The notes beneath the pieces were generated by a model. It made no database searches, was not told where the DNA came from, and saw only the letters and a list, made by a program, of their open reading frames with translations. From NCBI RefSeq assembly GCF_029946185.1, contig NZ_JAQSEA010000306.1, positions 11,044-75,043 on the forward strand: 64,000 bases of DNA, given 5' to 3'. Source of the stretch: Prosthecobacter sp. GTDB taxonomy: Bacteria > Verrucomicrobiota > Verrucomicrobiia > Verrucomicrobiales > Verrucomicrobiaceae. Each line of letters begins with the position of its first letter. Position 1 is the first letter of the stretch. Below are positions 8,099 through 55,537 of the stretch, one piece after another. The position numbers were made by a program, and so were the translations under genes.

Positions 8099-11000
8099 TC
8101 ACTCCACCTTCAGCACGCCGTTCATCACCATCCAGTGCCCCGGGAAGGTGCAGAGGTAGGGATAGTCGCCTTTCTCTTTCGGAGCGGTGATGTGAATGGT
8201 GAATTCTCCTTTGGGATTTGTCATGTCGGTATAGGCGAGGACGTCGTCGGAGTCAGGCACGTAGTGTTTCGCCAAGCCCTGCGGATCGGTGATCATGAGA
8301 TTGGCAAGATTGCCGATTTTTTGCAGCGTGCCCGGTTTGGCGAGCATCCAGTTATGCGGTACGACGTCAGGATTCTTGAAGATGATGGTGAGTTTTTCGT
8401 CAGCTTTGGCGGTGAGCTGCTTCTGCACATATTGCAGGCCCAATGCGGCTTCGATGATGAGTTCGCGCCCACCTTCGCCTTTGGCCCATGGATTGAGTTT
8501 GGCCGGTTTCGGGGCTTCGAGGCCGATCTGCGCGGCGTGATTGGTCTTCGCAATTTTGGCGTAGCCGGGGAATTCGCTGAAGGGTTCAGCCAAGGCGTGC
8601 GCAGTGAGGAAGATGTCATGGCCGGTGCTCACATGAAGATGAATCTGGCTCGCGGTGACAATCTGCGGGATTTCGAGGAAGAGGGTCTTGCCGCCGTCGA
8701 GCTTATGCACGCTGCGGACTTCGAGCGGATCATGCCCGGGTGTGTCGGCATACTTCACGGAATACTCGGGCGAGCCATACTGCGGGCCGTAGCGGTAGTT
8801 CCAGCACTGCGCAAAGCAGGTGGCTGCATCGGCATTAGCCACCGGCTGGTTGAAGCGGAGGAGCACCCCATTGTCACGCGCTTCGAAGCCGACGGGCACG
8901 GGTTTCTCACCGCCAGTGAAGCGCACGCGCTGGAAGCAGCCGTCCTTCGGCGTGTAGCTGCCCCAGCCCTGCATGCCGTTCACGTAGAGATGGCCGTCCT
9001 TCGGATTGAAGCGAGCGCACTGCGGTCCGGAGTCAAAATTGCCGCTGATCTTAACGGCCCCGGCCTGCCAGCGGCCTTTGACATTCTGTCGCATGACAAG
9101 CCATGCACTGCCACCGCCGGAAGAGAGGTGAACGAAATTTCCATCGCCTTTGAGCGTGGTCCATTTCTCGCTGGTGATGAAGGCCTGGCTGCTGGCGCTG
9201 TTATCTTCGCCACGCGGCATGTACATCAGCACCGGCTCGGGAGACTGGCCGTTCTTCGGACCACCGGCACCGAAGTGCGCGCCCAGATTGTGATCGAGTT
9301 CAATCTGGCAGATGGAAGTCGCGGGAGTCCAGTCGCCTTCCTGTACACTGGTGGTGAGGAAACGTCCGTCGGGTGAGATACCGAGGCCGTTCGGATTGCG
9401 GAAGCCGGTGCCGAGCACTTCGAGTTTGTCGCGTCCGGTGATGCGGCATACGCCTTGATTGCCGGAGGCGAAATACCAGCGGCCTTCTTTGTCGGTTTCG
9501 AGGCCGACGATGAAGTCGTGTCCGCCAGGGGAGGTTTGCATGGCGTTGGTCACGCACTGGTAGAAATCGGCCTCATCATCGCCATTGAGATCGTGGAGGC
9601 AGGTGATTTGATCGCGGCCGAGGACGTAGAGCTTGTCCTTCACGATCTTCATGCCCAGCGGTTGATTCAAGCCGGTGGCGAAGCGCTTCCAGCGAATTTT
9701 TTCGAGCTTTTCATCAATGCCTTTCACCAGCCAGACTTCGCCGGTCATGGTGGCGATGGCGGCGGTGCCATCGCTGAAGAAGTCGTGCGCGGTGATGAAG
9801 AATAGCGCGCCGTAGGGGTTCTTGAAGGGGATCTCGATGGTGTCAGTGGCAAAGGGCTGCTGGGTGCCGAGCTTGCCTTTGGTTTCGATCCACTGGGGCC
9901 ATTGGGCGGGGCCACTAGCAGTGATTGCCACAAGGTCCTTCGGGTCTCCACTGGCTATGACGTGATCCGTTGCACCGTCTTTTTCGAATACAAAGACGAC
10001 TCTGCGACCAGAGATGTAATAGCCTTGATACAGACCGTCGCGCTTTGTCTGTGATTTGGCCATTACCTTCCCATTCATCGCAGCTCCACCCATGAAACCG
10101 TGGCGTGCATCGCCGAGCTTGATGAAGCCGCCAGTCCATGTGACTGGGATCGAAAGCGTTTCAGGATCAAAGACGCATGACATGTCTCCATATTGCACAC
10201 ACACCGCCTTCGGAATCGTCAGGCCCGCGCCTTTGAAGACACCGCTAAAGACCGGGCCGTGATCGCTTGCGGCGAAGCGGCCATCTTTCCAGGTCACCTG
10301 ATCGTTTTGATTGCCCCAGTGTCCTTGTTGGCCGCCATCGAGACCGGGGAACTGTGGGATCAATACGGGCAGAGGCTTCTGCTTCATGAACTGCAACGCC
10401 TGCTTACCGTAGAAGTCGAAGATGCGCTCGCGATTGACGAACTCCTGCCAGTGCACGTTGTCGTCCGGATTGAGCGGTTTGTGGTCGGGTGTGAAGGCAA
10501 CGGGCTTGGGTGCAGGCGGGGGCAGGAGGGCATCAAGGTTGTCGAAGTCCCAGAGGCCAATCGTGTTGTCCATGCGCAGACGCGGAGCGCTGCCTTTGCG
10601 TGGCTTCATCACACCGCGCGTGAGGCGCACATCATCAAGAAGGCCATCGCAACCAATGCCACCGTCGACAAGACTGCCAAACGCAATGCCACCGGCTGTT
10701 GGGGTGCCTTTGAGCGGCTGCACGGCTTTGGTGAATACTTGCTTGCCATCGATCCAAAGCGTGACGTTCTGTTCGTCAATGTTGACTACGAAGTCGTGCC
10801 ACTTGCCGTCGCAGACATCGACCTTTGAGTCGAAGTCACCGCCCCGCCCCGGCATGTACAGCGCCAGCGTGCCGCGCTTCGCATGCGTGTAGAGCTCCCA
10901 ATGCGTGGCGGATGATTTGGCGTCGGAAGCGATGAGGATGTTGAAGTGATCTTTGCCGGTGAGCTTGGCACGGCACTCAATGGTAAGTGGGAGCGTGCGG

Positions 11001-12028
11001 AAGGGCTCGTTGTCCGACTCAAAGTAGCTGCCCTTCAGTGCCTCGCCGAATTCTATGCTCAGGGATGGGACGCTTTCGCCGGTCATGACTGGTTTGGTGA
11101 TGATGCTGGCGGCAGCGGGTTTCTCATTCCAAGTGCGATACTTCGGCTTCGGGCCGGGGGGATTGTCGTCGAGCTGCGGCAGGAGCCAGGCGAGGCCGTC
11201 GAGATTGTCGAGCAGGCGGCCTTCGGCGTCTTCGTTGGTGTGGTTCAGGATGCCGATGGGGCCGTTGTAACCGCTCGCACGCACGATGCGCAGCACCTTC
11301 ACATCTTCGGTGCCCACGCCGAGCGGGAGAATCTTGCGGCCTTTGGCTTCGCCGTCGATGTCCATGCCGTTGAGATTGAAGCAAAGCAGATGCGGCAGCA
11401 TGCGTGGCAGCACTTTGGCAAGACGGTCGAGATGGCCGTGACCGTGGTGCAGATTGTAAACGATGCCGATGTTTTTGATGCCTTTGGCTTTCAGGGCTTC
11501 CACGATGGCAATGGCGTTCTCCGGCTCGCCATACCAGCCGCCGTGATTGTAGAGAGCGACCTGGCAGCCCAACGGTGCGGCGGCTTCGCAGATCGGCTGC
11601 AGGCGTTCGACTTCTTTCGCTACGCGAGCCTGCTGATCCGCCTCGTCCTTGACCTGGATCGCGCCGCCGTTGCCATTCACCCAGAGCTGGGGATGCACGC
11701 CATGGCGTTTGAAGAGTTCCAGTGTCTGCTTGGCCTCGTCATTGAGCACGGTCGGGAACCACCAGCCCATGAGCTCGATGTGATGTTTTTTGAGCGCGTT
11801 CAATTCCTCATCCCACTGCGGGATGTGCTCCTTGCGGTAGTCATAGACGAACTTCTTCACGCCCATTTTTTCCAGCATGGCCGCACGCTCTTCAGGACCG
11901 CGCTTGCCCGCATCAAACGGGACAATGCACCACGCTGCGAGGTTGGATTTATCAAAGAGAGTTTCTGCGGCCTGCGATTGACCGAGGGCAGACGCGACTA
12001 GGACTAGAGCTAAGAAACGTAAGAGCAT
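8099..12028 (-). CDS. 1309-aa exported multidomain protein: xylose-isomerase-like TIM barrel + LamG + PVC dehydrogenase-type beta-propeller + C-terminal azurin-like cupredoxin
   Basis: Track ORF is 8099..12154. I moved the start to ATG 12028 ('MLLRFLALVLVASALGQSQA' signal peptide), which also removes the overlap with the upstream gene. Domains read by motif, in order: a TIM barrel ('GIVYNLHHGHGH'), then LamG ('DGKWHDFVVNIDEQNVTLWIDGK'), then 'FPGLDGGQQGHWGNQ', then propeller blades ('GLNQPLGMKIVKDKLYVLGRDQITCLHDLNGDDEAD'), and finally an azurin-like end ('HNWML' ... 'YLCTFPGHWMVMNG'). There is no CxxCH anywhere. Confidence 0.85.
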   Translation of the reverse strand: MLLRFLALVLVASALGQSQAAETLFDKSNLAAWCIVPFDAGKRGPEERAAMLEKMGVKKFVYDYRKEHIPQWDEELNALKKHHIELMGWWFPTVLNDEAKQTLELFKRHGVHPQLWVNGNGGAIQVKDEADQQARVAKEVERLQPICEAAAPLGCQVALYNHGGWYGEPENAIAIVEALKAKGIKNIGIVYNLHHGHGHLDRLAKVLPRMLPHLLCFNLNGMDIDGEAKGRKILPLGVGTEDVKVLRIVRASGYNGPIGILNHTNEDAEGRLLDNLDGLAWLLPQLDDNPPGPKPKYRTWNEKPAAASIITKPVMTGESVPSLSIEFGEALKGSYFESDNEPFRTLPLTIECRAKLTGKDHFNILIASDAKSSATHWELYTHAKRGTLALYMPGRGGDFDSKVDVCDGKWHDFVVNIDEQNVTLWIDGKQVFTKAVQPLKGTPTAGGIAFGSLVDGGIGCDGLLDDVRLTRGVMKPRKGSAPRLRMDNTIGLWDFDNLDALLPPPAPKPVAFTPDHKPLNPDDNVHWQEFVNRERIFDFYGKQALQFMKQKPLPVLIPQFPGLDGGQQGHWGNQNDQVTWKDGRFAASDHGPVFSGVFKGAGLTIPKAVCVQYGDMSCVFDPETLSIPVTWTGGFIKLGDARHGFMGGAAMNGKVMAKSQTKRDGLYQGYYISGRRVVFVFEKDGATDHVIASGDPKDLVAITASGPAQWPQWIETKGKLGTQQPFATDTIEIPFKNPYGALFFITAHDFFSDGTAAIATMTGEVWLVKGIDEKLEKIRWKRFATGLNQPLGMKIVKDKLYVLGRDQITCLHDLNGDDEADFYQCVTNAMQTSPGGHDFIVGLETDKEGRWYFASGNQGVCRITGRDKLEVLGTGFRNPNGLGISPDGRFLTTSVQEGDWTPATSICQIELDHNLGAHFGAGGPKNGQSPEPVLMYMPRGEDNSASSQAFITSEKWTTLKGDGNFVHLSSGGGSAWLVMRQNVKGRWQAGAVKISGNFDSGPQCARFNPKDGHLYVNGMQGWGSYTPKDGCFQRVRFTGGEKPVPVGFEARDNGVLLRFNQPVANADAATCFAQCWNYRYGPQYGSPEYSVKYADTPGHDPLEVRSVHKLDGGKTLFLEIPQIVTASQIHLHVSTGHDIFLTAHALAEPFSEFPGYAKIAKTNHAAQIGLEAPKPAKLNPWAKGEGGRELIIEAALGLQYVQKQLTAKADEKLTIIFKNPDVVPHNWMLAKPGTLQKIGNLANLMITDPQGLAKHYVPDSDDVLAYTDMTNPKGEFTIHITAPKEKGDYPYLCTFPGHWMVMNGVLKVE

Positions 12029-12036
12029 GGGGAAGT

Positions 12037-13053
12037 TTAATTGGTGTTGGAATAGGCGGTCCACTGAGCGTCGATCCACTTTGCATCCGGCGCGCCGTCG
12101 AAGACGAGGATGCGGTATTTGGAGACGTAGGGCTTGCCGGGTTCGATGGACCAATCACCAGCTTGCGAAGGAGCGACGCAGAGCTGCGGGTTCTTCGGAT
12201 TGAGGCGCAGGGGCTGTGGAAAGCGGAAGTTCGAGGGATGAATCAGGATCACCATGCCAGTGGGTGCTCCATCGACCAGACCGCCGATATGGACCCACTT
12301 GCCCTTGGTGGAGTCCCCTTTGGCGCGGTCATGACCTTCGCTGGTCAGCATCGTCACGGCATCGACCTGATTCCAGGCGAGATTGCCGCGCACACCAAGA
12401 CCGCCGTAGTGGTACTTCGGCAGTTTCAGCGGCGGCGCCCCCGCACAGGTCTGTGTGCTGGTGAGATCGATGATGTTGGCGGGCTTGCCATCGAGCTCCT
12501 TCTGCGCCACCGCGACCTCCCACGTTTCATTGAGCACCTTTTGATCAGGCGCGTGGCTGTGATCGAGAAACAGATGCTGGCTGATGAAGCCACCGCCATC
12601 AGCACCACCCCAGCTCTTGTCCAGTTTATCGAAACGCACCTCGGCGAGGATCTGGTCGCCGCTCTTGTCCTTGCCGTCGCCTTTGCCCTGATTCCAGAAA
12701 TCGGGATGTTGTACATGTGGCGCCAGACCGTGAATCCCAACGAGACGTGTGTCTTGTGCATCACCGAACTCGGTCTTCGTCCATGCCATCCAGATGCCGC
12801 GATGCCAGCGGTGGTCTTCGGGATGATTGCCCGTGACAAGCTTGCCGCTGGGCGAGTACACCGGATGAAGATGAGCACCGTGTTTGAAGACGGCGGACAC
12901 ACCCTCGGGCACATCGCCCGCCTCCATTTGGTAATCACAGATCGTCTTCCCACCGCTGCTGAAGTGCAGGACGGAGCCGAGCTTTTCCACCTGGATATCG
13001 GCGGAGAAAGTATGGGTGGCCAGAAGGGCGGCAAGAAGAAGGGTCGGCTTCAT
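12037..13053 (-). CDS. secreted PmoA-like / DUF6807 (PF14100-like) family protein
   Basis: ATG start and signal peptide 'MKPTLLLAALLATHTFSA'. The patterns 'HRWHRGIWMAW' and 'ILIHPSNFRFPQPLRLNP' resemble my recollection of the DUF6807 family. It lies 8 nt upstream of the giant fusion gene. Confidence 0.6.
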   Translation of the reverse strand: MKPTLLLAALLATHTFSADIQVEKLGSVLHFSSGGKTICDYQMEAGDVPEGVSAVFKHGAHLHPVYSPSGKLVTGNHPEDHRWHRGIWMAWTKTEFGDAQDTRLVGIHGLAPHVQHPDFWNQGKGDGKDKSGDQILAEVRFDKLDKSWGGADGGGFISQHLFLDHSHAPDQKVLNETWEVAVAQKELDGKPANIIDLTSTQTCAGAPPLKLPKYHYGGLGVRGNLAWNQVDAVTMLTSEGHDRAKGDSTKGKWVHIGGLVDGAPTGMVILIHPSNFRFPQPLRLNPKNPQLCVAPSQAGDWSIEPGKPYVSKYRILVFDGAPDAKWIDAQWTAYSNTN

Positions 13054-13075: not shown

Positions 13076-14350
13076 TCAGAAACTCGCAGGCTTTACAAGC
13101 GTTCCCGCTTTCACTACGCCGCCCTGCATGACGGCAAGGAGGTTGTCGCGGTTTTCGAGAATGGAGATGTCCTGGAGCACGTCACCTTTCACCACGAGGA
13201 CATCGCCCAGTTTGCCAGCTTCGAGCGTGCCTATTTCCTTTTCGCGTCCCATCATCTTCGCGCCGCCGAGAGTGGCCCACTTGATCGTGTCGAGTGTAGA
13301 GAAGCCGACGTAATTGACGAAGAAGGTCAGCTCCTGCGCATAGGTGCCGTGCGGCGTCCAAGCAAAGCCGTAGTCGCCACCGAGGCCCAGGGTGCCACCG
13401 GCCTTGAGCACTTTGCGGCAGCTCTCAGCACCGGCCTCAAGAGTTTCTTGATGACCATCCAGCACACGCTGGGACAAGCCGAACTCCTTGCCACGCTGCA
13501 CGCTGAAGAGCTCGAATCCCAGACCGGGGCACATCGGGACATTGCGCTTGAGCAGGAGGTCGAGGCATTCGTCGTCCATGAAGGTGCCATGTTCGATGGC
13601 ATCGTAGCCAGCCTTGAGCGCATTGCGGATGCCCTCGGTGGCACGGCAGTGACCGGTGACTTTGAGGCCGTGATTGTGCGCCGTGGCCACGACGGCGTGC
13701 ATTTCTTCGAAGGTCATGCACAGCGTGTGGTGGTCGTTGATGTCGGGAGAAGCCGCATCTCCCGTGGGATAGGTTTTCACCCACTCGATGCCGTCTTTGA
13801 CGAGTTTGCGCACTGCACTGCGGGCCTGCTCGGGACCGTTCACGATGAAAACAATCCCCTCCATGCCGATGCGGCGGAAGTCAGGGTTCCAGTCCATCAG
13901 CCCGCCTGCACCGCAGATTTCACGGCCGCTGGCGCTGAGGCGCGGGCCGGGGATCATGTCCTCCTCGATGGCCTTTTTCATCCACACGTCAATGTTGTGC
14001 AGGCAGCCGCCACTGCGCGCCGATGTGTAGCCGCATTCGAGGGCTGTCTTCGCGTTCACGGCAGATTGCAGCGTGACGTATTCCACGGGGAACTTGATGT
14101 CGAGGTCCTGCAGCTCGGACACATTGAAGTAGGTGAGATGGATGTGCGCCTCCACGAGCCCTGGCATGATCGTGCCGCCACCAGCGTCAATGATGCGAGC
14201 CTCAGGAGCTGGTGGAGCCTCCGCAGCGGGACCCGCGTAGCTGATGATGCCGTCCGTGATGATCACAGCGGCGTTCGGAATGGCTGGCCGACCCGTGCCA
14301 TCGACGAGTTGGCCATTTTTGACGACGGTGATGCCTGGTTGGAGCTTCAT
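13076..14350 (-). CDS. amidohydrolase family metal-dependent hydrolase
   Basis: 'PGLVEAHIHL' is the HxH metal motif. 'VTGHCRATEGI..ALKAGYDAIEHG' and a TIM-barrel amidohydrolase layout are also present. Track ORF begins at TTG 14359; ATG 14350 ('MKLQPGITVV') is preferred. Confidence 0.85.
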   Translation of the reverse strand: MKLQPGITVVKNGQLVDGTGRPAIPNAAVIITDGIISYAGPAAEAPPAPEARIIDAGGGTIMPGLVEAHIHLTYFNVSELQDLDIKFPVEYVTLQSAVNAKTALECGYTSARSGGCLHNIDVWMKKAIEEDMIPGPRLSASGREICGAGGLMDWNPDFRRIGMEGIVFIVNGPEQARSAVRKLVKDGIEWVKTYPTGDAASPDINDHHTLCMTFEEMHAVVATAHNHGLKVTGHCRATEGIRNALKAGYDAIEHGTFMDDECLDLLLKRNVPMCPGLGFELFSVQRGKEFGLSQRVLDGHQETLEAGAESCRKVLKAGGTLGLGGDYGFAWTPHGTYAQELTFFVNYVGFSTLDTIKWATLGGAKMMGREKEIGTLEAGKLGDVLVVKGDVLQDISILENRDNLLAVMQGGVVKAGTLVKPASF

Positions 14351-14362
14351 GGTGCGCAAAGG

Positions 14363-15175
14363 CTATCGTTTCGTCCGGCGATTGGATAGAACAGAAGCGG
14401 CAGGGCTTGGAACATTCGCGGCAGCGTAGGTTTCACGATACGCGCCTGGTGTGAGGCTGGTCACGCGGCGGAATTCGCGGGTGAGGTGGCTTTGATCGGC
14501 GAAGCCGCAGCGCAGACCGATGTCAGCGATGGATTCGCGCGTATCGACCAGCAGGCGGCAGGCGTTTTGGATGCGCAGGCGTTTCAGGTATTGCTGCGGT
14601 GGCAGGCCATACTCTCGGACGAAGCTGCGCTCAAAGGCGCGTGGCGACATGCCAACGGCTCGCGCCATGTCGGCATTTGTCACCGATTCACCGAGGCGGC
14701 GGGTCATGAGCGCAATGACGACACCGAGGCGGATGTCGCTGCGCTGATCAATCTGCGCGGCATCCAGTGCGCGCGTGATGCCTGCGGTGCCGACGATGCG
14801 GCCTCGGGCATTGCATACGGGCCGTTTAGTGGTGAAGCACCATGCCGCCGTGTGATCAAAGCGACCGACGAGTTCGAGTCGGCCCTGCACCGTCTGCCCG
14901 GCCAGCACGGCTTCATCTCCTGCACGGAAATGCGCCGCGAGGTGTGCGGGCGAGAAATCATCATCGGTCCTGCCCAGCACTTCATCCAGCAGGTGCATCC
15001 CATAGTTCAGCAGGAAGGTGCGGTTCACCCAAAGGTAGCGGCGCTTGGCGTCCTTGATCCATGCCTGCACGTCCGGCAGCGCGTCAAAAAGATCGCGTAG
15101 GGCATCAACGGGGGATGTGGCGGCGGCTTTGGCTTTCACAAGCGGGAGACTAATCAGAACGTGTTGTGATGACAC
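14363..15175 (-). CDS. AraC family transcriptional regulator with N-terminal PAS-like sensor domain
   Basis: The C-terminal tandem HTH ('ADIGLRCGFADQSHLTREFRRVTSLTPGAYR') is typical of AraC/XylS. The N-terminal 'DALPDVQAWIKDAKRRYLWVNRTFLLNYG' looks like a PAS fold. The start is uncertain (GTG 15175). Confidence 0.85.
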   Translation of the reverse strand: MSSQHVLISLPLVKAKAAATSPVDALRDLFDALPDVQAWIKDAKRRYLWVNRTFLLNYGMHLLDEVLGRTDDDFSPAHLAAHFRAGDEAVLAGQTVQGRLELVGRFDHTAAWCFTTKRPVCNARGRIVGTAGITRALDAAQIDQRSDIRLGVVIALMTRRLGESVTNADMARAVGMSPRAFERSFVREYGLPPQQYLKRLRIQNACRLLVDTRESIADIGLRCGFADQSHLTREFRRVTSLTPGAYRETYAAANVPSPAASVLSNRRTKR

Positions 15176-19596: not shown

Positions 19597-21039
19597 TCAG
19601 GCCAGCAATTCCCGCACCACCTTGCACTCGTTTACGCCCGTGAGACGGAAATCCAGCCCCGCGTATTTGTACGTGAACTTTTCGTGGTCGAAGCCCAAAA
19701 TTCGCAAAATCGTGGCGTGCAGGTCATGCACATGCACCGGATTTTCCTGCGCGGCGAAGCCAAATTCATCGGTGGAACCATGCGTATAGCCACCCCGCAC
19801 CCCGCCACCCGCCAGCCACATGGTGAAGCCGTAGTGGTTGTGGTCGCGACCATGCTGCTTACCCGCATTGGCACCGGGCGTCGGAAGTTCCACCGCCGGT
19901 GTGCGGCCAAATTCGCCGCCCCACATCATCAGAGTGTCATCCCAGAGCCCGCGCTGCTTCAAGTCACCCATGAAGGCAGCAATCGCCCCGTCCGTCTGCA
20001 GGCCCAGTTTGCGGTGTTCAAGAATTTCGTCGTGATTGTCCCAGGGTTGGCCCGCGCCGGTCCAGAGCTGGATGAAGCGCACTCCCCGCTCCAGCAAACG
20101 CCGTGCAATCAGGCACTGGCGGCCAAAAGCATGGTCACCATACATCTTCCTCACCGATTCCGGCTCCTTCATGATGTCGAAGGCGTCCGTGGCCTCCATC
20201 TGCATGCGGTAGGCCAGTTCGTAGCTCTGCACCCGGGCTTCCAGCTGCTGGTCGCGGTCCTGCTGTACCAGATTACGCTGGTTCAATTCCTGCAGCAGGT
20301 CGAGCTGGCGGCGCTGCTGCTTCAAGTCGAGCGAGCCGTTCTTGATGAATTCCACGAGTTTTTCGACCCGGGTGTCCTCCGTGTTGATGTAGGCTCCCTG
20401 ATAGGCGCTCGGCAGGAAGGCAGACTGCCAGTTCTTCGTGCGCCGCGTCGGCATGCCTCCTGGGCACATGGCGATGTAGCCGGGCAGGTTGTGATTTTCA
20501 CTGCCCAGACCGTAGGTCACCCACGATCCCATCGTCGGGCGGTTCAAGCGGCCCTCGCCGCTGTTCATCAGGCCAAGGGAAGGCTCATGGTTCGGCACGT
20601 CGGCGTGCATGGAGCGGATCACGCAGAGGTCATCGGCAAAGGCACCTGTCTTTTCAAAGACCTCGCTCACTTCGAGCCCGCACTCACCGCGTTTCGTGAA
20701 TTTGAAGGGGGATTTGAAGCCCGCACCCGTAGGACGCTCCGTTTTGAGCACGTTCGGCAGCGGTTTGCCGTCGTATTGGTCCAGCATCGGCTTCGGATCG
20801 AAGGTATCGACGTGAGACGGCCCGCCGTTCATGAAGAAATGCACCACCCGCTTGGCCTTTGGCTCAAAATGCGGACGCTTCACCGCCATCGGGTCCATCG
20901 TTGCCGCAGAGGCCTGCGATGTGAACAGCGAGCCGGCGGCCATCGTGCCAAAGCCCATGCCGACACGCTGCAGCAGTTCGCGACGTGTCAAAAAGGCATG
21001 CTCCAAGTTTGGGGCATGATGTGAAAAAATTGAACTCAT
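19597..21039 (-). CDS. DUF1501 domain protein (sulfatase-fold, Tat-type signal)
   Basis: 'LTRRELLQRVGMGFGTMAAGSL' is a Tat-like leader. The DUF1501-typical body includes 'VVHFFMNGGPSHVDTFDPKP', 'IRSMHADVPNHEP' and 'GRDHN'. An alternative upstream start lies at 21090. Confidence 0.88.
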   Translation of the reverse strand: MSSIFSHHAPNLEHAFLTRRELLQRVGMGFGTMAAGSLFTSQASAATMDPMAVKRPHFEPKAKRVVHFFMNGGPSHVDTFDPKPMLDQYDGKPLPNVLKTERPTGAGFKSPFKFTKRGECGLEVSEVFEKTGAFADDLCVIRSMHADVPNHEPSLGLMNSGEGRLNRPTMGSWVTYGLGSENHNLPGYIAMCPGGMPTRRTKNWQSAFLPSAYQGAYINTEDTRVEKLVEFIKNGSLDLKQQRRQLDLLQELNQRNLVQQDRDQQLEARVQSYELAYRMQMEATDAFDIMKEPESVRKMYGDHAFGRQCLIARRLLERGVRFIQLWTGAGQPWDNHDEILEHRKLGLQTDGAIAAFMGDLKQRGLWDDTLMMWGGEFGRTPAVELPTPGANAGKQHGRDHNHYGFTMWLAGGGVRGGYTHGSTDEFGFAAQENPVHVHDLHATILRILGFDHEKFTYKYAGLDFRLTGVNECKVVRELLA

Positions 21040-21168
21040 GGGGGGTATGTATGATACGTCTCTGCCAGCTGATGCTTTCGCCTGATTCATAGCACAAAAA
21101 CGCGCAAAAAAGGAGTGAAAGCTGCTGATGAAAAAAACGCCCGGTAGCCGTATCCTTCGTACCCCCTA

Positions 21169-24100
21169 ATGTCTCTGCCTTTACGCCATCTTTCCTTGGC
21201 CGCCTTTGTCGTCGGCTCGTTTTCTCTTTCTGCCGCTCCCGCATGGAAAGACGCGGAAGTCGTTCTCAAAGCCAAATGCTACGAGTGCCACAACCCCAAA
21301 AAGACCAAAGGGGACGTGGATTTGCAGCAGTTTGCCGCTGATCCACAGCTCACCAAGCACTTTGAAATCTGGCTCAAGGTCAAAGACACCATCGAAAACG
21401 GCGACATGCCGCCGCCAAAGGCGCACCAGATGTCCGATCAGGAGCACACCGCCCTCCTCGGCTGGGTGAATGGGGAGCTCGATGCCCTAGCCACCGCGCA
21501 ATCGGGCGATCCTGGCCCCGTGACCATGCGGCGCCTCACCAACGCCGAGTACGACTACACCATCCGCGACCTGACCCGCCACGACTACGGCTTTGCCAAG
21601 GAATTCCAAACCGACGGCGGCGGCGGCGAGGGCTTCAGCAATACCGGCGATGTCCTCTTCATGAGCCCGGCAGCGCTGGACAAATACTTCGGTGCCGCCC
21701 GCAAGGTGGCCGACCACGCCACCATCATGCCGGGCACAGGCATTGTTTTCAATCCACAGCGCATCGGCCTGCGTGGGCCAGAGCAGGTGAAAGCGCAGGC
21801 GCAACAGGCCCTGTATGTCTGGTATCAGCAGAAAGCCGCACCGCATCTGCCCCAAGATGGCGATGACATGCTCGAGGCGGACTACATGGTCGCCTGCTGG
21901 AAGCACAAGCATTTCCAAACCCCGCTCGAACAACTCGCCAAAGACGGCGGCCTGAAGCTGCCCTTCCTGCAAAACTGGAACACCCTCGTCAACGCCACCG
22001 AGCCCAAGTCACGCTTTCTCGATCTCACCCGTGTGGCATGGCGTGAACTCCCCGCCCCCGAAGTCACCAAGCCCGGCCAGGTGCCGCAAGCGGTGGTTGA
22101 TGGAGCCAAGGCCATCCAAGCGCAGTTGCTTTCATGGAACAATCCCAAGAAAGCCGGCAGCGGTGTGCAGCGACGCCAGCAGGATGCGGATGGCATTCGC
22201 CCCTACCAGATGAACATCGAGGTGAAGGGCAAAAAGCAGGCCTTTCTCTGCATTGGCGATGATGGTGACGGCAACAAAGGCGACATCGCCCTCATTACGA
22301 AGCTTGATCTGAAGACCACCAAGGGACCGCTGCTTTATCTCAACTGGCTCAACAAGCAGCTCGATGAAGATCGCAAAGCCCTCGCCGCGATTCCACCACC
22401 AGCGAATGCAGAAGCGCTGAAACAACGCATCACAGAGCTCGAACGTGTGAAAAGCGCCTTCGGCAAACATCCCCAGGGCCGCCCAATCGAGCCCGGTGTG
22501 CTCGCCATCGCCGCACCGCTTGCCTTCACCCTGCCACTCCCTGAGAACGTCACCTGGATTCACGCTGAAGCCCGGCTGGATCTGCAAAACCCCGACATCA
22601 ATGACGGCACCATCCAATGGGATCTCACGGCCGACAAACCACGGGATGTCACCAAGATCATGCCCGGCATTCTCACTGTGTGGAAAACGCAGACAGATGC
22701 CGCGCGCAACACCATGCGGGATTTCAGCGCCATGAAGCAGGCCTTTCCGGACATGTATGAGCGCCGGCTCGAAGAAGTCGCCAGCAATCTCTACCGCCGC
22801 AAACCCGGCATCACCGTCTATTACTTCAGCGATGAGCAACTCGGTCAAATCCTCGGTGTCAAAGATCGTGATCTGCTAGCGGCGATGAAGAAGGACTTCA
22901 GCCTCACCGCCCCGCCAAACCTCAATCCCCAGCAGCAGAAGGAATTTGACGGTGCCATGCTCTACAATCTGCACAGTTTTGCCGGCCGCGCCTGGCGTCG
23001 TCCAATCAGCGATGAGGAAAGGCAGAAGCTCGATGCGCTGTACATCGACGGCCGCAAAAAGGAACTCGACCGCGAATCCGCCGCGCGCGAGGTTCTCGTT
23101 CGCGTGCTCGTCTCGCCCTACTTCCTGTTCAAAGCCGAGACCCTGCCGATGGCCAATGTCGCCCCCGGGGACGTCAAGCTCAGCGCCTTCGAACTCGCCT
23201 CCCGCCTCAGCTACTTCCTCTGGGCCTCGCAGCCCGACTGGGAACTGCGTAAAGCCGCCAATGACGGCAGCATCTTGAAGCCCGAAGTCCTCGCCGCACA
23301 GACCAAGCGCATGCTGCGCGATCCAAAAGCCAACGCCCTCGCCAAAGAATTCGCCGGGCAGTGGCTCAAGTTCAGCGGCTTCGATGCGCAAAGCACCGTC
23401 GATGAGAAAAAGTATCCGCAGTTCACCCCCGAACTCCGCAACGACATGCAGCGCGAGATCACCGAGTTCTTCACGCATCTCGTACGCGATGACCGCAACG
23501 TCGCCGACATCATGGGTGGCGACTACACCTTCCTCAACGAGCGCCTCGCCAAATTCTACGATGTCCCCGGCGTCACCGGTGGTGACTTCCGCGAAGTCAA
23601 AGTCGCAGAGCAGCATCGCGGCGGCCTCCTCGGCATGGGGGCCATCCTGACCAAGACCTCACGCCCCAATCGCACCAGCCCCGTACTTCGCGGCGACTAC
23701 CTCTATCAGGTCGTGCTCGGCTTCAGCTCACCACCACCACCACCGAATGTACCCAAGCTGCCCGACAGCGCCGAAAAGCCCGCCTCTTTACGCGAGGCTC
23801 TGATGCAGCATCGCGCGGATCAAGCCTGCTCCGTCTGCCATGACCGCATCGATCCACTCGGCTTCGCACTCGAAAGCTTTGACCCCATCGGCCGCTTCCG
23901 CATGGCCGATGAAACCGGCGGCAAGATCGATGACACCGGCGAACTCAAAGACGGCACCAAGTTCCAGGGCCTCGCCGGTCTGCGCGACTACCTCAAAAAG
24001 AACGAACCCAACTTCACCGCCCAGTTCTGCCGCAAGCTCCTCGGCTACGCCCTCGGCCGTCAGACCATGCCCAGCGACAAAGCACTCCTCACGCACATGC

Positions 24101-24213
24101 AAGCCGCCCTCAAGCAAAACAACGGCAAGTTCTCCGCCGCCGTCCTCGACGTCGTCAACAGCCGCCAGTTCCTCAATCGCCGCAGCGAGCCAGCGATGGC
24201 TTCCAACCAATAA
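21169..24213 (+). CDS. DUF1592/DUF1595/DUF1588/DUF1587/DUF1585-type protein with N-terminal CxxCH motif
   Basis: 1014 aa with a signal peptide and 'KCYECHNPKKTKGDVDL' (planctomycete cytochrome-c-type motif). The C-terminal 'CSVCHDRIDPLGFALESFD' is typical of this PVC family. A DUF1552 gene follows 12 nt downstream. Confidence 0.88.
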   Translation: MSLPLRHLSLAAFVVGSFSLSAAPAWKDAEVVLKAKCYECHNPKKTKGDVDLQQFAADPQLTKHFEIWLKVKDTIENGDMPPPKAHQMSDQEHTALLGWVNGELDALATAQSGDPGPVTMRRLTNAEYDYTIRDLTRHDYGFAKEFQTDGGGGEGFSNTGDVLFMSPAALDKYFGAARKVADHATIMPGTGIVFNPQRIGLRGPEQVKAQAQQALYVWYQQKAAPHLPQDGDDMLEADYMVACWKHKHFQTPLEQLAKDGGLKLPFLQNWNTLVNATEPKSRFLDLTRVAWRELPAPEVTKPGQVPQAVVDGAKAIQAQLLSWNNPKKAGSGVQRRQQDADGIRPYQMNIEVKGKKQAFLCIGDDGDGNKGDIALITKLDLKTTKGPLLYLNWLNKQLDEDRKALAAIPPPANAEALKQRITELERVKSAFGKHPQGRPIEPGVLAIAAPLAFTLPLPENVTWIHAEARLDLQNPDINDGTIQWDLTADKPRDVTKIMPGILTVWKTQTDAARNTMRDFSAMKQAFPDMYERRLEEVASNLYRRKPGITVYYFSDEQLGQILGVKDRDLLAAMKKDFSLTAPPNLNPQQQKEFDGAMLYNLHSFAGRAWRRPISDEERQKLDALYIDGRKKELDRESAAREVLVRVLVSPYFLFKAETLPMANVAPGDVKLSAFELASRLSYFLWASQPDWELRKAANDGSILKPEVLAAQTKRMLRDPKANALAKEFAGQWLKFSGFDAQSTVDEKKYPQFTPELRNDMQREITEFFTHLVRDDRNVADIMGGDYTFLNERLAKFYDVPGVTGGDFREVKVAEQHRGGLLGMGAILTKTSRPNRTSPVLRGDYLYQVVLGFSSPPPPPNVPKLPDSAEKPASLREALMQHRADQACSVCHDRIDPLGFALESFDPIGRFRMADETGGKIDDTGELKDGTKFQGLAGLRDYLKKNEPNFTAQFCRKLLGYALGRQTMPSDKALLTHMQAALKQNNGKFSAAVLDVVNSRQFLNRRSEPAMASNQ

Positions 24214-24225
24214 TCGCATTCCATT

Positions 24226-25545
24226 ATGAACCTTTCCCGTCGCAAATTTCTCCATGGCGCAGGCGTCGCCCTCGGCCTGCCATGGTTCGAATCCATCAGC
24301 TCTTTCGGAGCCGAATCGGTGAAGAACAACACCGCGCCGCGTCGTCTCGCTGTGTGCTTCACTGGCAACGGTGTCAATCCGCATCACTGGGGTGCCACCC
24401 AGGGTGCTGCGGGCATGGAGTTCATGAAGACACTCTCGCCATTGGAGCCGCTCAAGAAGCACGTCAGCGTGTTCAAAGGCCTCTGGAATCCGACCACCGT
24501 GGAAGGAGAAGGCGGCCACTATCCGAAGATGAACCTGCTCTGCGGTCTCAAGGTGAAGAAGACCACCACCGACGTCGAAGTCGGCACCACGATGGATCAG
24601 CTCATCGCCGCACAAACCGGCAAGTTCACGCCCATGCCGAGTGTCGTTCTCGGCACCGAGCGCCCCAGCTACAGCACGGATTCCGGCTTCACCTCCATCT
24701 ACTCCGCCTACATCTCCTGGAGCACCCCGACGACACCCGCTCCGAAGGAAATCTTCCCGCAGCAGGCCTTCGACCAGCTCTTTGACGACGGCAGCAAGCG
24801 CAAGCGCGACAAGAGCATCCTCGACCTCGTACTCGAAGACGCCGGCGCGCTGAAGCCCAAGCTCAGCCAGCGCGACAAACAAAAGCTCGACGAATACCTC
24901 ACCTCCGTGCGCGAGATCGAGCAGCGCGTCGAACTCGCCGAAAAAATCAGCAAGGCTGAAACCAACGGCGCAGGCTGGCAGCCCACCGTGAAAGTGGCCA
25001 CCATGGCGCGTCCCGGTGTCGGCATTCCCACCAGCGCGGAAGATCACCTGCGCCTCATGTTCGACATCATGCTCCTCGCCTTCCAGATGGACCGCACCCG
25101 CGTGGCCACGTTCATGATGAACAACGACCTCTCCAACATGCGCTTCCCCAGCCTCGATGGCATCAGCGGCGGCATCCATGAACTGTCCCACCACGCCAAT
25201 GACGAGCACCGCCTCGATATGTATCAGCGCGTCAATCAGCACCAGGTGAAGCTCTGGGGCGAATTCCTCGCCAAGATGCAGGCCACCAATGAAGGCGAGC
25301 GCACCCTGCTCGAAAACAGCATGATCATGCTCACCAGCAGCCTCTTCGATGGCAACGCACACGACTCCCGCCAGCTCCCCGTCGTCCTCGCCGGCGGCGG
25401 TGGTGGCACCATCCAAGGCGGTCGCTTCCACGATCTCAGCGCCGATCCGAACCGCAAAATGTGCCGCCTCCACATCGCCCTCATGGACCGCATGGGCCTC
25501 CACGTCGGCCACTTCGGTGATGCGGAGAACGCGCTGGCAATTTAG
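24226..25545 (+). CDS. DUF1552 (HxxSHH) domain protein
   Basis: 'MNLSRRKFLHGAGVALGLPWFES' is a Tat-like leader. 'GGIHELSHHAND' is the HxxSHH family signature. Confidence 0.9.
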   Translation: MNLSRRKFLHGAGVALGLPWFESISSFGAESVKNNTAPRRLAVCFTGNGVNPHHWGATQGAAGMEFMKTLSPLEPLKKHVSVFKGLWNPTTVEGEGGHYPKMNLLCGLKVKKTTTDVEVGTTMDQLIAAQTGKFTPMPSVVLGTERPSYSTDSGFTSIYSAYISWSTPTTPAPKEIFPQQAFDQLFDDGSKRKRDKSILDLVLEDAGALKPKLSQRDKQKLDEYLTSVREIEQRVELAEKISKAETNGAGWQPTVKVATMARPGVGIPTSAEDHLRLMFDIMLLAFQMDRTRVATFMMNNDLSNMRFPSLDGISGGIHELSHHANDEHRLDMYQRVNQHQVKLWGEFLAKMQATNEGERTLLENSMIMLTSSLFDGNAHDSRQLPVVLAGGGGGTIQGGRFHDLSADPNRKMCRLHIALMDRMGLHVGHFGDAENALAI

Positions 25546-25602: not shown

Positions 25603-28569
25603 TCACTCCTTCGTGATCGTCTCATCCAGATTCAGCAGCACGCGGGCGACCAATGTGTGCGAATCGATCTCACCCGGTTTCGGCTGGTGGCGTTTGAGCA
25701 TGTCCACCAGCACGGTGGTTTCTTTGGCCGTCGGCTGCCGCCCGGTACAGAGCTGGAAACCGTAGGCGATGCGCGCAGCATCATCGCTGCCGCCTTCTTT
25801 CCACATGCGTTCTCCCAGCGCCTTGGCGGCTGCCATGCTCATGGTTTCATTCAGTGTCATGAGCGCCTGCAGCGGCGTGTTGCTCTTCGAGCGGCGGATG
25901 CAGGAGCTCTCTCCATTGGGCACGTCGAAGGTGCTCAAAAACGGATACGGCGTGCTGCGGCGGCGGAACACATAGATGCTGCGGCGGAACTGGCTCTCAT
26001 CCTCATCCACCTTCCACGGGAAAGGCGCATAGCTGGCGGGTTTCTCAAACAGATACGCAGGCGCCGGCGGCATCACGGGACGCCCTCCGATCTCCGGATT
26101 GAGCAGCCCGCTCGCTGCCAGTTGAATGTCACGCACCACTTCCCCCTCCACGCGAAAGCGGGGGCCCCTCGCAAGCAGTCGGTTGTAGGGATCACGCTCA
26201 AGAAGCACCGGCGTCACCTTGCTGGACTGCTGATAAGTCTCGCTGCTGGTGATGAGCCGCAGCAGATGCTTGCTGCTCCAGCCGTGCTCCATGAAATCGA
26301 CGGCAAGCCAGTCGAGCAACGCAGGATGGCTCGGCGGTGCTCCCTGCGTGCCGAAGTCCTCCGCAGTTTCCACCAGTCCGGTGCCAAAGCAGGCCTGCCA
26401 CACGCGGTTCACATAAGCGCGCGCTGTGGTGGGCGATTTTCTATCCACCATCCAGCGGGCAAAAGTAAGACGCGAGCCATCAGCATTCTTGGGCAGCGGA
26501 TTCAGCATGGCAGGCACACCGGCGGTGACGCGGTTGTCAGGCTTGAGGAAATCACCGCGCTTGAGCACCGAGGTCATGCGCGGCTCATCGCGCGGGTCCA
26601 GCGTCAGGGTGGTGGTGCCTTCGGGGTGCTGCCTCCACAGCGATTCAATTTCGTCATTCACCGGCTGCCACTCCGCCACCGTGGTGCGGAAGGCGCTGAA
26701 CTCAGATTTCTTGCCGTAGAGCGGATCCGCCGCCGCATCCGGCGCATCGGTGACACTGATGCGATACCGTCCGAGGTTCATCGTCTGCAGGTCATCGCTG
26801 TTCCAGCCGCCGTGCTTCATGCTCAGCGTCACACTCAGTTCACTGTCTGCTTTGACCTCAAGGGGCCGCTCCAAAACAAACACCGCATTGCGCGGCACAT
26901 TGCGTCGTCCAGGCCCCGCATTGATGCCCCATGCGGTCTCCGCTTTGCCATCAATCGCATACGCAATCGGGCCAGTGACGCGCTTGTCCTTCGTGAGATC
27001 CTGATCACGCGCAAAGGGGGAAAGCGGTGAGTTCTCGGGCTCTCCATAGTCAGCGCTCGCTTTGACAAACTTCAGCTTCGTCATCTTGCCATCGATCTTC
27101 ATCTCAGCACTGAACTCCGTGAGCGCCGCCGTGCCTTTGATCGAACGGCCCGGGCCGTAGGCAGGCAGATTCGGGTCGTTCATCAGCTCCAAACGGAAGG
27201 CCGCGATGGTCTTCGATCCGCCCGGTTTCACCGCAAACTTCACATCGCTCTTCGTCGGCGCATACCCTTGCGCGAGGATGCTGCCATCCGGCTGCCGCAG
27301 CGCCTTCTCACCACCGGAAGGATCGTCTTCAAAAGACAGAGTATGCCACTGCGGCTGCGCGGCCTTGACAGAGCTGACCCACGTTTTCATCCGCTCCTGC
27401 CAATAAGGGTGATCATGCTTCAGCTTGGCTTCGAGTTCGGCACTGCGCGTGAGGACTTGCCCGCGCTGCATCTGCTCGCTGGCGGTGTACACCACGCGCC
27501 AGGGTTCGTCGTCATTGTTGAGGAAGGCAAACATGCGGTAGTACTCCTCCTGCGTGATGGGGTCGTACTTGTGGTTGTGGCACTGCGTGCAGCCGATGGT
27601 AAGGCCGAGGATGCTTTTGCCGATAGTGTCCATGCGGTCAAACATCGATTCCATGCGGAACTGCTCCGGGTCCACGCCACCCTCCTCATTCACCATCGTG
27701 TTGCGTAGAAACCCGGTGGCCACGATCTGATCCTGCGTGGCCTTGGGCAACTCATCACCCGCAAGCTGCTCAATGATGAACTGGTCGTACGGCAGGTCGC
27801 GATTATAGGCGCTGATGACCCAGTCACGGTAAAACCAGATGAAGCGCATCGGATCCTTTTCATAGCCGTTGCTATCCGCGTAATGCGCCGCATCCAGCCA
27901 GTGCCGCGCCCAGCGCTCGCCGAAGTGCTGGCTGGCAAGCAAGTTGGCGGTGAGCTGTTGAATGCTTGCTGCCGGAGCGTGCTTGTAAGCGGTGGTAAAG
28001 CCGACGATCTCCTGCGGCGTCGGTGGCAGGCCGGTGAGATCGAGATGAAGCCGACGCAGCAGTGTTTCAGGCGCGGCAGGAGGCGAGGGCTGCAATCCTT
28101 CATTTGCCAGCCGCTCGCGAATAAAGGCATCGATGGGATGCTTCGCTGTCGCAGGCACTTGCGACCGCACCGGCGGCTTGAAAGCCCAGTGGTCGGTCTT
28201 CTTGTCGATGCTCACACTCGCGCTGTCAGGCCAGACGGCCCCCTCATCGATCCACTCCTTCAGCTTGCCGATCTCCTCCGCGCTCAGCGGGTCCCCTTTG
28301 CGCGGCATGCGCATCTTGGGGTTCGTGCCCAGCACAGCGTGAATCAGACGGCTGTCGTCGGCTTTGCCGAGGACAATCGCAGCACCAAAATCTCCGCCTA
28401 TGAGCGCGCTGGGCTTGTGATCCAGCCGGAAGGCCGCCTCCTGCTTGTGCGCGCCGTGGCACTGATAGCAGTGCTCGCTAAAAATGGGCTGGATGTCCTG
28501 CACGAAATCGACCGCCGCATAAACAGGCGCAGTGAGGAGCAGCAGGAGAAGGGCGGAGGAACTTTTCAC
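25603..28569 (-). CDS. DUF1549/DUF1553 (PSCyt2/PSD1) protein with N-terminal CxxCH motif
   Basis: 988 aa with a signal peptide. 'IQPIFSEHCYQCHGAHKQEAAFRLD' matches PSCyt1. DUF1549-like 'FIRERLANEGLQPSP' and DUF1553-like 'CTQCHNHKYDPITQEEYY' are also present. Confidence 0.9.
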   Translation of the reverse strand: MKSSSALLLLLLTAPVYAAVDFVQDIQPIFSEHCYQCHGAHKQEAAFRLDHKPSALIGGDFGAAIVLGKADDSRLIHAVLGTNPKMRMPRKGDPLSAEEIGKLKEWIDEGAVWPDSASVSIDKKTDHWAFKPPVRSQVPATAKHPIDAFIRERLANEGLQPSPPAAPETLLRRLHLDLTGLPPTPQEIVGFTTAYKHAPAASIQQLTANLLASQHFGERWARHWLDAAHYADSNGYEKDPMRFIWFYRDWVISAYNRDLPYDQFIIEQLAGDELPKATQDQIVATGFLRNTMVNEEGGVDPEQFRMESMFDRMDTIGKSILGLTIGCTQCHNHKYDPITQEEYYRMFAFLNNDDEPWRVVYTASEQMQRGQVLTRSAELEAKLKHDHPYWQERMKTWVSSVKAAQPQWHTLSFEDDPSGGEKALRQPDGSILAQGYAPTKSDVKFAVKPGGSKTIAAFRLELMNDPNLPAYGPGRSIKGTAALTEFSAEMKIDGKMTKLKFVKASADYGEPENSPLSPFARDQDLTKDKRVTGPIAYAIDGKAETAWGINAGPGRRNVPRNAVFVLERPLEVKADSELSVTLSMKHGGWNSDDLQTMNLGRYRISVTDAPDAAADPLYGKKSEFSAFRTTVAEWQPVNDEIESLWRQHPEGTTTLTLDPRDEPRMTSVLKRGDFLKPDNRVTAGVPAMLNPLPKNADGSRLTFARWMVDRKSPTTARAYVNRVWQACFGTGLVETAEDFGTQGAPPSHPALLDWLAVDFMEHGWSSKHLLRLITSSETYQQSSKVTPVLLERDPYNRLLARGPRFRVEGEVVRDIQLAASGLLNPEIGGRPVMPPAPAYLFEKPASYAPFPWKVDEDESQFRRSIYVFRRRSTPYPFLSTFDVPNGESSCIRRSKSNTPLQALMTLNETMSMAAAKALGERMWKEGGSDDAARIAYGFQLCTGRQPTAKETTVLVDMLKRHQPKPGEIDSHTLVARVLLNLDETITKE

Positions 28570-36356: not shown

Positions 36357-36373
36357 ATCCACCGCTTCCCATC

Positions 36374-52530: not shown

Positions 52531-52584
52531 GTACGGATTTAACCCAAAGAGGCTGTCCGCTGTCAATGGCGGCTGCGTTTTTGT

Positions 52585-54057: not shown

Positions 54058-54064
54058 GGCAGGA

Positions 54065-55525: not shown

Positions 55526-55537
55526 TCAATTTCTCCA

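Follow-up and report, generated by a model that had tools for sequence, protein, structure and literature searches.

An azurin/auracyanin-like type-1 copper domain fused to a multidomain beta-propeller protein of Prosthecobacter, and its predicted role as a built-in electron carrier

What is the role of a blue-copper domain at the C-terminal end of a very large secreted protein, and is the copper site complete? This question is raised by a gene located at 8099-12028 on the minus strand (ATG at 12028, TGA at 8099-8101) of a 64,000-nucleotide (nt) stretch of Prosthecobacter sp. DNA (assembly GCF_029946185.1, contig NZ_JAQSEA010000306.1), hereafter referred to as the window. The gene encodes a secreted multidomain protein of 1309 amino acids (aa), hereafter referred to as the giant protein. 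A preliminary description had proposed that the last 122 aa form an azurin-type type-1 copper site, which was swapped in for the usual CxxCH haem domain of dehydrogenase-like proteins of the Planctomycetes-Verrucomicrobia-Chlamydiae (PVC) type, giving a built-in electron acceptor. In this study, we confirmed that the segment at 8102-8467 encodes an intact cupredoxin with a complete and conserved set of type-1 copper ligands. The proposal as a whole was partly supported: the comparison of related sequences argues for a built-in electron-transfer module, but the replacement of 'the usual haem domain' is too simple a description.

The copper domain (aa 1188-1309; 8102-8467, minus strand) corresponds exactly to the last 122 codons of the gene. 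The Pfam model Copper-bind (PF00127) matched aa 1198-1309 at 34.6 bits (gathering score, 21.2; E 2.6e-8), and a phmmer search of the PDB sequences detected auracyanin A (1.5e-14) and dozens of azurins (4e-10 to 1e-8). In the HMMER alignments, the His, Cys, His and Met of the query were in register with the ligands of both auracyanin A and azurin-I. All three strings quoted in the preliminary description were present, and each was aligned with the azurin segment that had been named for it; the segments of azurin-I (1rkr) aligned to the query were GHNWVL, RVIAHT and YFCSFPGHFALMKG. We re-read the ligand codons on the DNA, namely, His1225 at 8354-8356 (CAT), Cys1293 at 8150-8152, His1298 at 8135-8137 and Met1302 at 8123-8125, and the C-x4-H-x3-M motif at 8123-8152, with the spacing of azurin, proved to be correct. 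The domain was modelled by AlphaFold2 (AF2) as aa 1170-1309 together with 117 homologous domain sequences, with a mean predicted local distance difference test (pLDDT) value of 96.2. A Foldseek search with this model ranked auracyanin A first (E 1.9e-12, template modelling (TM) score 0.89, root-mean-square deviation (rmsd) 1.9 Å), followed by auracyanin B, the Roseiflexus auracyanin and then the azurins (TM ~0.8); the aromatic amine dehydrogenase-azurin complex 2h3x was also among the matches. Chance similarity was ruled out by these scores. Judging from the residues in register, the domain would bind one type-1 copper via His1225, Cys1293, His1298 and Met1302.

Compared with azurin proper, the domain showed three differences. 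The score for the azurin equivalog TIGR02695 of NCBIfam was 37.6 bits, below the cut-off of 105.1. The hallmarks of azurin are the Cys3-Cys26 disulfide and the Gly45 carbonyl that serves as the fifth ligand. The ligand Cys is the sole Cys within aa 1171-1309, so the disulfide is absent, and the position of Gly45 is occupied by Pro in 37/37 relatives. This last set consisted of the query and 36 representatives of clusters at 50% identity, with an identity of the core to the query down to ~35%. The failed TIGR02695 test, the missing second Cys and the Pro in place of Gly45 rule out azurin in the strict sense. The fitting label is an azurin/auracyanin-like type-1 copper domain, which by score is closer to the auracyanins than to azurin proper.

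The ligands were highly conserved. All of the 117 domain sequences had the first His and the Cys, and at least 90% had the second His and the Met; the C-x4-H-x3-M motif was kept in 119 of 120 full-length homologues. In the set of 37 cupredoxin sequences, conservation was complete for the first His (37/37), the Cys (35/35) and the second His (35/35), and nearly so for the Met (34/35), and the Asn following the first His was found in 37/37. Conservation across these three sets indicates, at the level of sequence, that the copper site is under selection and is not a relic. A degenerate cupredoxin was ruled out by the score and the conservation of the ligands.

These data also bear on the idea that the cupredoxin-like domain serves for structure or binding and no longer handles electrons, for example as a degenerate site, a copper buffer or a docking surface. 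We consider this very improbable. Copper has been lost from many cupredoxin folds, and the axial Met is replaced by Ile in one homologue and by Thr in another, both of which would fit such a module. Axial Met replacements, however, are known to retain type-1 copper, and all four ligands are present in essentially all of more than 150 sequences, down to ~35% identity. The second-sphere residues of the azurin site, namely, the Asn after the first His and the Phe in C-T-F-P-G-H, are likewise kept, and for a module of this kind the alternation with haem domains described below would be unexpected. The two natural variants with a replaced axial Met are P0068 (Ile, HWMVINGLM) and P0302 (Thr, HWQVTRG), whose sites may be of a higher-potential or perturbed type-1 kind.

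As the preliminary description had stated, the 1309-aa protein contained no CxxCH, and the same was true of its 120 closest homologues; no match to TIGR02603 was detected in the protein. We therefore looked at what its more distant relatives carry in the same place. An exhaustive HMMER search with aa 560-1190, the core of the protein, gave 2551 representatives (clusters at 50% identity), including 782 below 1e-30, and the best 150 were classified by their tails. A cupredoxin tail was identified in 36 of these, two of which also had a haem domain behind the cupredoxin, and a penta-haem tail was identified in 42. One to three CxxCH were found in nine representatives, no redox tail in 53 (a class that includes fragments) and other arrangements in ten. 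Altogether, one to five CxxCH were present in 51 of the 150 (42 penta-haem representatives plus nine). The survey of haem versus cupredoxin thus yielded both kinds of tail (51 versus 36), but the two were not strictly alternatives, as both a haem domain and a cupredoxin were found in approximately ten clusters.

In the haem-carrying relatives, the redox module was placed after the propeller and beta-sandwich of the core, as in the case of the cupredoxin. Three relatives with 48-52% identity, P0245, P0250 and P0259, have a mono-haem domain of ~70 aa directly past a conserved junction of the form '...EPF(T/S)xFPGYxKI', and the same junction leads into the cupredoxin linker of the giant protein. 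The census and the comparison of junctions together revealed alternative fused carriers, copper or haem, at the same position of homologous cores. From the alignments, modules have clearly been exchanged at the C-terminal position of the core. In addition, an extra CxxCH was observed upstream of the core and DUF6797 in eight or nine cupredoxin proteins, including P0247, P0248, P0254, P0257, P0260, P0262 and P0263. The upstream domain was the PVC-type TIGR02603 in both of the proteins checked by NCBIfam (P0247 and P0262), and TIGR02603 was found behind the cupredoxin in P0318 and P0321. The presence of haem and cupredoxin in one polypeptide implies a two-centre relay of haem and copper. This is the pattern expected if the modules behave as interchangeable and stackable electron-transfer units, and the alternation of copper with haem modules is the strongest evidence in this analysis that the copper domain is the electron-transfer partner of the core.

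The direction of the exchange was less simple than proposed. In a neighbour-joining tree of the core, which was made without support values, the cupredoxin group of ~40 leaves was separated from a clade of no-tail and penta-haem proteins. The sole nested exception was the mono-haem trio, which was located within the cupredoxin group, and haem replacing copper is the simpler reading for that case. The exchange of modules at the junction was thus supported, but the direction from haem to copper was not, since the nested trio reads the opposite way. Similarly, haem tails do exist among the relatives, as had been supposed, but the haem modules of the closest relatives were mostly penta-haem or small mono-haem domains, and not the PVC-type domain. 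A sister clade of the core (P0266, P0268, P0276 and others) carried a C-terminal region of ~700 aa with five CxxCH, and the members of another clade ended 25-35 aa past the beta-sandwich, without a redox module.

Next, we consider the core to which these carriers are attached. The AF2 model of aa 560-1190 was all-beta, with a small beta domain, a propeller and a beta-sandwich (pLDDT 76, predicted TM score (pTM) 0.82). The small beta domain corresponds to DUF6797 (aa ~593-691; 9956-10252, minus strand), with AF2 strands at model residues 34-132 and a Pfam match at aa 619-660 of 31.1 bits against a gathering score of 24.9; DUF6797 preceded the propeller in 8/8 diverse relatives scanned. The propeller itself (aa ~714-1039; 8912-9889, minus strand) is of the type found in soluble glucose dehydrogenase (sGDH) and NHL proteins, with a GFRNPNG stretch and a DxNxDxxxD loop. 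The beta-sandwich behind it (aa ~1045-1143; 8600-8896, minus strand; AF2 strands at model residues 486-584) holds a conserved WNYxYxxxYGSxE motif, in which W517, Y519, Y525, G526 and S527 were invariant among 48 diverse relatives. The core is linked to the cupredoxin by a probably flexible tether (aa ~1150-1187; 8468-8581, minus strand) of low pLDDT, with values below 50 at model residues 598-611 and 625-631, and the junction motif 'EPFSEFPGYAKIAK' is located immediately before this tether.

A Foldseek search with the core model detected 2ism, an sGDH-like putative glucose dehydrogenase of Thermus, as the best match (E 2e-9, TM 0.66), together with 3a9g, a pyrroloquinoline quinone (PQQ) sugar dehydrogenase (TM 0.65), and fungal AA12 enzymes at lower rank. 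These best structural neighbours of the propeller are six-bladed. At the profile level, an earlier profile that still included the cupredoxin (A3) matched azurins only; profile A4, rebuilt from the propeller alone, matched NHL-type blades and lactonases among the PDB sequences, and reached sGDH (1c9u) only at E 0.63 (positions 170-217 against residues 221-266). With hhalign, GFRNPNGLGISPDG of the same stretch was paired with GHRNPQGLAFTPNG (probability 79%, local, 46 columns), with GFRNPNG opposite GHRNPQG of sGDH; this pairing serves as a lead only. The PQQ-contacting residues include the Arg-Asn of GHRNPQG, and nine such residues are present in CcPDH, the fungal pyranose dehydrogenase of family AA12. 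Among the 48 relatives, the Arg of GFRNPNG was invariant and the Asn was not. The DxNxDxxxD loop of the propeller reads HDLNGDDEADF and matches a motif to which a preprint on PQQ enzymes with six blades assigns a structural metal (10.64898/2026.07.10.737718).

Weak Pfam matches to DUF7133 and SGL were also detected at aa 740-890, and TIGR02604 of NCBIfam gave 27.6 bits against a cut-off of 122.2, at aa 782-860 only. The propeller, previously described as PVC dehydrogenase-like, is thus a distant homologue of that family but falls well short of canonical membership. Single-sequence phmmer searches of the PDB with the middle region and the N-terminal half gave noise (doublecortin, E 0.014; laminin G, E 0.3). 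A NosZ-like core and a core like that of copper nitrite reductase (CuNiR) were considered, and no structural or profile match supported either. Based on the structural neighbours, the profile matches and the motif leads, the core belongs to the sGDH/NHL/SGL propeller superfamily and is most similar to sGDH. The propeller is presumed to be the catalytic domain, and it would carry a PQQ-type cofactor and act on a sugar substrate.

The remaining domains are located on the N-terminal side of the core. The gene lies within a single long open reading frame (ORF) at 8099-12154 of the minus strand. The ATG at 12028 was taken as the real start because it is followed by a Sec-type signal peptide, is located 8 nt past the upstream stop and gives a length like that of the homologues (120 full-length sequences with 70-88% identity and ~1256-1358 aa). 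The signal peptide, as read from the sequence, occupies aa 1-22 (11963-12028, minus strand; MLLRFLALVLVASALGQSQA, followed by AE), with cleavage presumed after aa 22; in the consensus of the homologues, the N-terminus is hydrophobic and continues with 'AADLFDK'. A putative, divergent xylose-isomerase-like TIM barrel of the 'sugar phosphate isomerase/epimerase' type follows at aa ~23-330 (11039-11962, minus strand). Its Pfam match to AP_endonuc_2 (PF01261) at aa 98-260 had 29.8 bits, slightly below the gathering score of 31.1, and the same model scored above threshold in the relatives P0247 (41.8 bits) and P0281 (36.0 bits); most close homologues also carry it as a precomputed annotation. When the PDB sequences were searched with a profile built from 15 sequences of this region, no match was obtained, and the barrel was not assigned to a characterized subfamily. 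Next to the barrel, a LamG (concanavalin-A-like) jelly roll was identified at aa 333-474 (10607-11032, minus strand; Laminin_G_3, 52.5 bits, E 8e-14). This LamG domain is a probable carbohydrate-binding module; PF13385 has been treated as such in freshwater Verrucomicrobia (PMC5615132). Among the 150 representatives, the TIM and LamG modules were found with all kinds of tail.

How might these parts work together? The reading that we consider fairly probable is that of a periplasmic dehydrogenase, in which the propeller passes electrons from its substrate to the tethered type-1 copper and from there to the respiratory chain. The substrate oxidized by the propeller would be a sugar or a comparable alcohol or aldehyde, and the electrons would be handed singly to the blue copper; the mobile cupredoxin would then deliver them to a high-potential acceptor in the periplasm or membrane, and onward to a terminal oxidase. 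The occupancy of the site by copper, the transfer of electrons and the direction of their flow are all predicted features of this scheme. Azurin and amicyanin are physiological acceptors of periplasmic quinoprotein dehydrogenases, and azurin also serves quinohaemoprotein dehydrogenases; the dehydrogenase model is in line with this use and with the precedent of tethered partners in copper nitrite reductases. The low-confidence linker in the AF2 model fits a mobile carrier domain.

Several observations weigh against the dehydrogenase model. The similarity of the core to sGDH-like structures was limited to TM scores of 0.65-0.66, with an rmsd of 4.4-4.7 Å and 16-18% identity, and the link to sGDH at the sequence level consists of a single local motif. 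The Pfam family GSDH (PF07995) gave no match at E up to 1. Near the giant gene, no obvious redox partner was encoded, and a large sister clade lacks a tail altogether, which implies that a carrier of its own is not essential for the core to function. Finally, the sole tested protein of the neighbouring TIGR02604 family acted as a beta-galactosidase and not as a dehydrogenase (PMC5342196).

The order of the domains, with the cupredoxin behind a propeller, would also fit a flow in the reverse direction, in which the respiratory chain supplies the cupredoxin with electrons for a reductase or oxidase site in the propeller. NosZ shares this layout, and its CuA feeds the propeller; the best PDB relatives of the copper domain, the auracyanins, are shuttles within respiratory and photosynthetic chains, and the penta-haem tails of the sister clade would equally suit the input of electrons. 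Tethered donors are also documented for CuNiR (PMC7201279). The propeller, however, found its best matches in six-bladed sGDH-like dehydrogenases, and neither NosZ nor a nitrite reductase nor any other metallo-reductase was present among the top 50 Foldseek matches. The sGDH-type RNP motif appears to be retained in the propeller, and the residues invariant in the 48 relatives included no visible His cluster that could form a catalytic copper or iron site. With this evidence, reverse flow appears unlikely.

The beta-galactosidase report raises a different possibility, namely, that the propeller, alone or with the TIM barrel, cleaves glycosides via a transient oxidation, and that the cupredoxin recycles or primes the cofactor. 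The reported protein, composed of TIGR02604, HEAT and cytochrome c parts, hydrolysed lactose (Km 1.8 mM; PMC5342196), and the TIGR02604 family has been counted among putative propeller glycoside hydrolases in planctomycetes (PMC7397252). Moreover, proteins annotated as sugar phosphate isomerases have been identified as 3-keto-glycoside lyases that act after periplasmic oxidation (10.1101/2024.03.25.586180, PMC7676230), and a LamG domain is attached to the giant protein and an F5/8 type C domain to relatives. Against this, the giant protein fails the test for membership of TIGR02604, the activity is known from a lone report without mechanistic follow-up, and the profile of the TIM barrel finds no solved relative. 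A redox-neutral mechanism, furthermore, needs no conserved carrier that alternates with penta-haem chains. We accordingly regard glycoside cleavage of this kind as improbable.

A combined scheme, an oxidative glycosidase wired into respiration, is tentative and in our estimation has a low probability. The LamG domain would hold the glycan, the propeller would oxidize a hydroxyl group of the sugar, the TIM barrel would cleave or rearrange the resulting keto-sugar, and the electrons from the sugar hydroxyl would leave to the respiratory chain via the protein's own blue-copper domain. If this scheme were true, the cleavage of the glycosidic bond would itself be an energy-conserving step for PVC bacteria, and the cupredoxin, penta-haem and no-tail clades would be variants tuned to different acceptors. 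The dehydrogenase model remains the one that we prefer for the protein.

The fusion is widespread, and hundreds of database proteins have this design. The architecture was common to all 120 best database matches (70-88% identity). In data with one genome per species, 375 stretches with a relative were detected, and the best 80 were examined for architecture and neighbours: the cupredoxin was kept in 78, and the remaining two were cut by contig ends. Nearly all of the best 80 were labelled Verrucomicrobia (Prosthecobacter, Brevifollis, Verrucomicrobiaceae and metagenome-assembled genomes of unclassified Verrucomicrobia), and homologues were present in two cultured strains, Prosthecobacter fluviatilis KACC 12649 and Brevifollis gellanilyticus NBRC 108608. 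A search of the protein database with the 128-aa domain detected fragments at 50-58% identity in Gemmataceae, Pirellulaceae and other Planctomycetota; the hits were almost only short fragments, and thus reveal the spread of the domain but not its architecture. The cupredoxin is a feature of a whole diversified clade that spans Verrucomicrobiota and Planctomycetota, and its presence in the giant protein is not a one-off event.

The database names given to these proteins by several sources include 'azurin', 'azurin/sugar phosphate isomerase/epimerase' and 'plastocyanin/azurin family copper-binding protein'. Four of them (P0009, P0061, P0103 and P0110) are named 'putative heme-binding protein' or 'heme-binding domain-containing protein' by NCBI. 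This name looks inherited from the PVC-type family, since all 120 homologues have the cupredoxin and no CxxCH. Our literature searches yielded no paper on the fusion, no such architecture in the searches for TIGR02604/DUF7133 and for fused cupredoxins, and nothing on DUF6797. An azurin phylogeny reported azurin genes in 7.6% of Verrucomicrobia genomes and never used the words fusion or multidomain (PMC8779525). The architecture is already abundant in databases and machine-annotated as azurin, and the family is uncharacterized.

The giant gene is the last in a same-strand run composed of an AraC/PAS regulator, an amidohydrolase, a DUF6807 protein and the giant protein, with gaps of 3-22 nt. The DUF6807 gene (12037-13053, minus strand; Pfam DUF6807, 182 bits) ends with TAA at 12037-12039, 8 nt before the ATG of the giant gene, and is probably co-transcribed with it, given this spacing. 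DUF6807, which we take to be the former PmoA family, gave no NCBIfam match for this protein. A DUF6807 homologue was located within 8 kb upstream in 41 of the 80 related genomes, and was directly adjacent in ~20. The genes for the amidohydrolase and for the AraC regulator with a PAS domain are located directly upstream of the DUF6807 gene (13076-15175, minus strand). The nearest NCBIfam model for the amidohydrolase was the Caulobacter-type Xaa-Pro dipeptidase (250 bits, below the cut-off of 500). Within 8 kb upstream of the giant gene, an amidohydrolase was found in 34/80 and an AraC regulator in 32/80 of the related genomes, and an operon that includes these two genes and the giant gene is possible. 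The genes downstream, for CoaB, inositol monophosphatase and an ABC transporter, were beside the giant gene in 0/80 related loci, and consensus scans around its 3' end detected no promoter and no terminator.

In the rest of the 64-kb window, no tRNA genes and no Rfam families at the gathering threshold were detected, and the GC content was 56-62% throughout. Classic PVC gene pairs were observed, including a DUF1501 gene (19597-21090, minus strand), a PSCyt1/PSD3/PSD5/PSD4/PSCyt3/PSD2 protein (21169-24213, plus strand) followed by a DUF1552/HXXSHH protein (24226-25545, plus strand), and a PSCyt1/PSCyt2/PSD1 protein (25603-28569, minus strand). A 369-aa ORF without a Pfam match (34900-36009, plus strand) adjoins a gene for a BamB-like PQQ_2 propeller protein (36266-37540, plus strand; 133 bits). 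The segment at 52585-57412 (minus strand) holds three Proton_antipo_M genes, of the NuoL/M/N or Mrp type, and is followed by a 598-aa ORF (50770-52566, minus strand) with no Pfam match at 1e-5.

In Verrucomicrobiota and Planctomycetota, periplasmic propeller proteins to which redox domains are attached form large paralogous families that are unexplained. The fusion offers a tractable entry to these families, as it places a small and spectroscopically obvious blue-copper reporter within a predicted enzyme, for which natural variants with haem or without a tail exist. If the role as a carrier is true, the tethering of redox partners known from copper nitrite reductase extends to an sGDH-like enzyme. 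Sugar dehydrogenases that are naturally self-wired would be of practical interest for direct-electron-transfer biosensors.

Compared with known systems, the copper domain gives its best sequence and structure matches with auracyanins A and B of Chloroflexus aurantiacus (2aan and 1qhq) and the Roseiflexus auracyanin (6kol), with 33% identity and the same His/Cys/His/Met set and loop length. The auracyanins are free-standing and membrane-anchored, whereas the copper domain is the tethered C-terminus of a 1309-aa enzyme. With the azurins of Pseudomonas and Alcaligenes, it shares the C-T-F-P-G-H-x3-M loop, the H-N-W at the first His and the helix insertion; azurin, in contrast, is a free protein with a disulfide and Gly45, and the domain is fused, without the disulfide and with Pro at that position. 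For the core, the closest known enzymes are the soluble PQQ sugar dehydrogenases of the sGDH/Asd family (2ism, 3a9g and 1c9u): its best Foldseek matches are six-bladed propellers of this kind, and the G-x-RNP-x-G stretch would be common to both. In CcPDH, a propeller is likewise joined to its own electron-transfer domain and to a carbohydrate-binding module; its electron-transfer domain is a cytochrome, whereas the giant protein has a copper carrier and, in addition, a TIM barrel. The PVC-type CxxCH proteins (TIGR02604, HEAT and TIGR02603), which are distant propeller homologues from the same phyla, follow the same logic of a propeller with a C-terminal redox domain, but the giant protein has neither HEAT repeats nor CxxCH, and its propeller is flanked by DUF6797 and the beta-sandwich. 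NosZ resembles the giant protein in its layout, with a cupredoxin for electron transfer placed C-terminal to a catalytic propeller, but it is seven-bladed with a CuZ cluster and a binuclear CuA, in contrast to the six-bladed matches and the mononuclear type-1 site of the giant protein. In CuNiR, the partner is fused as a cupredoxin (HdNiR type) or as a cytochrome c (RpNiR), an alternation like the one observed here (PMC7201279, PMC6038957); the CuNiR core is unrelated to that of the giant protein, and its partner donates electrons, whereas the flow is probably the opposite in the giant protein. The fusion, already visible in automated annotation, is thus a known design principle in a new setting and not a new kind of system.

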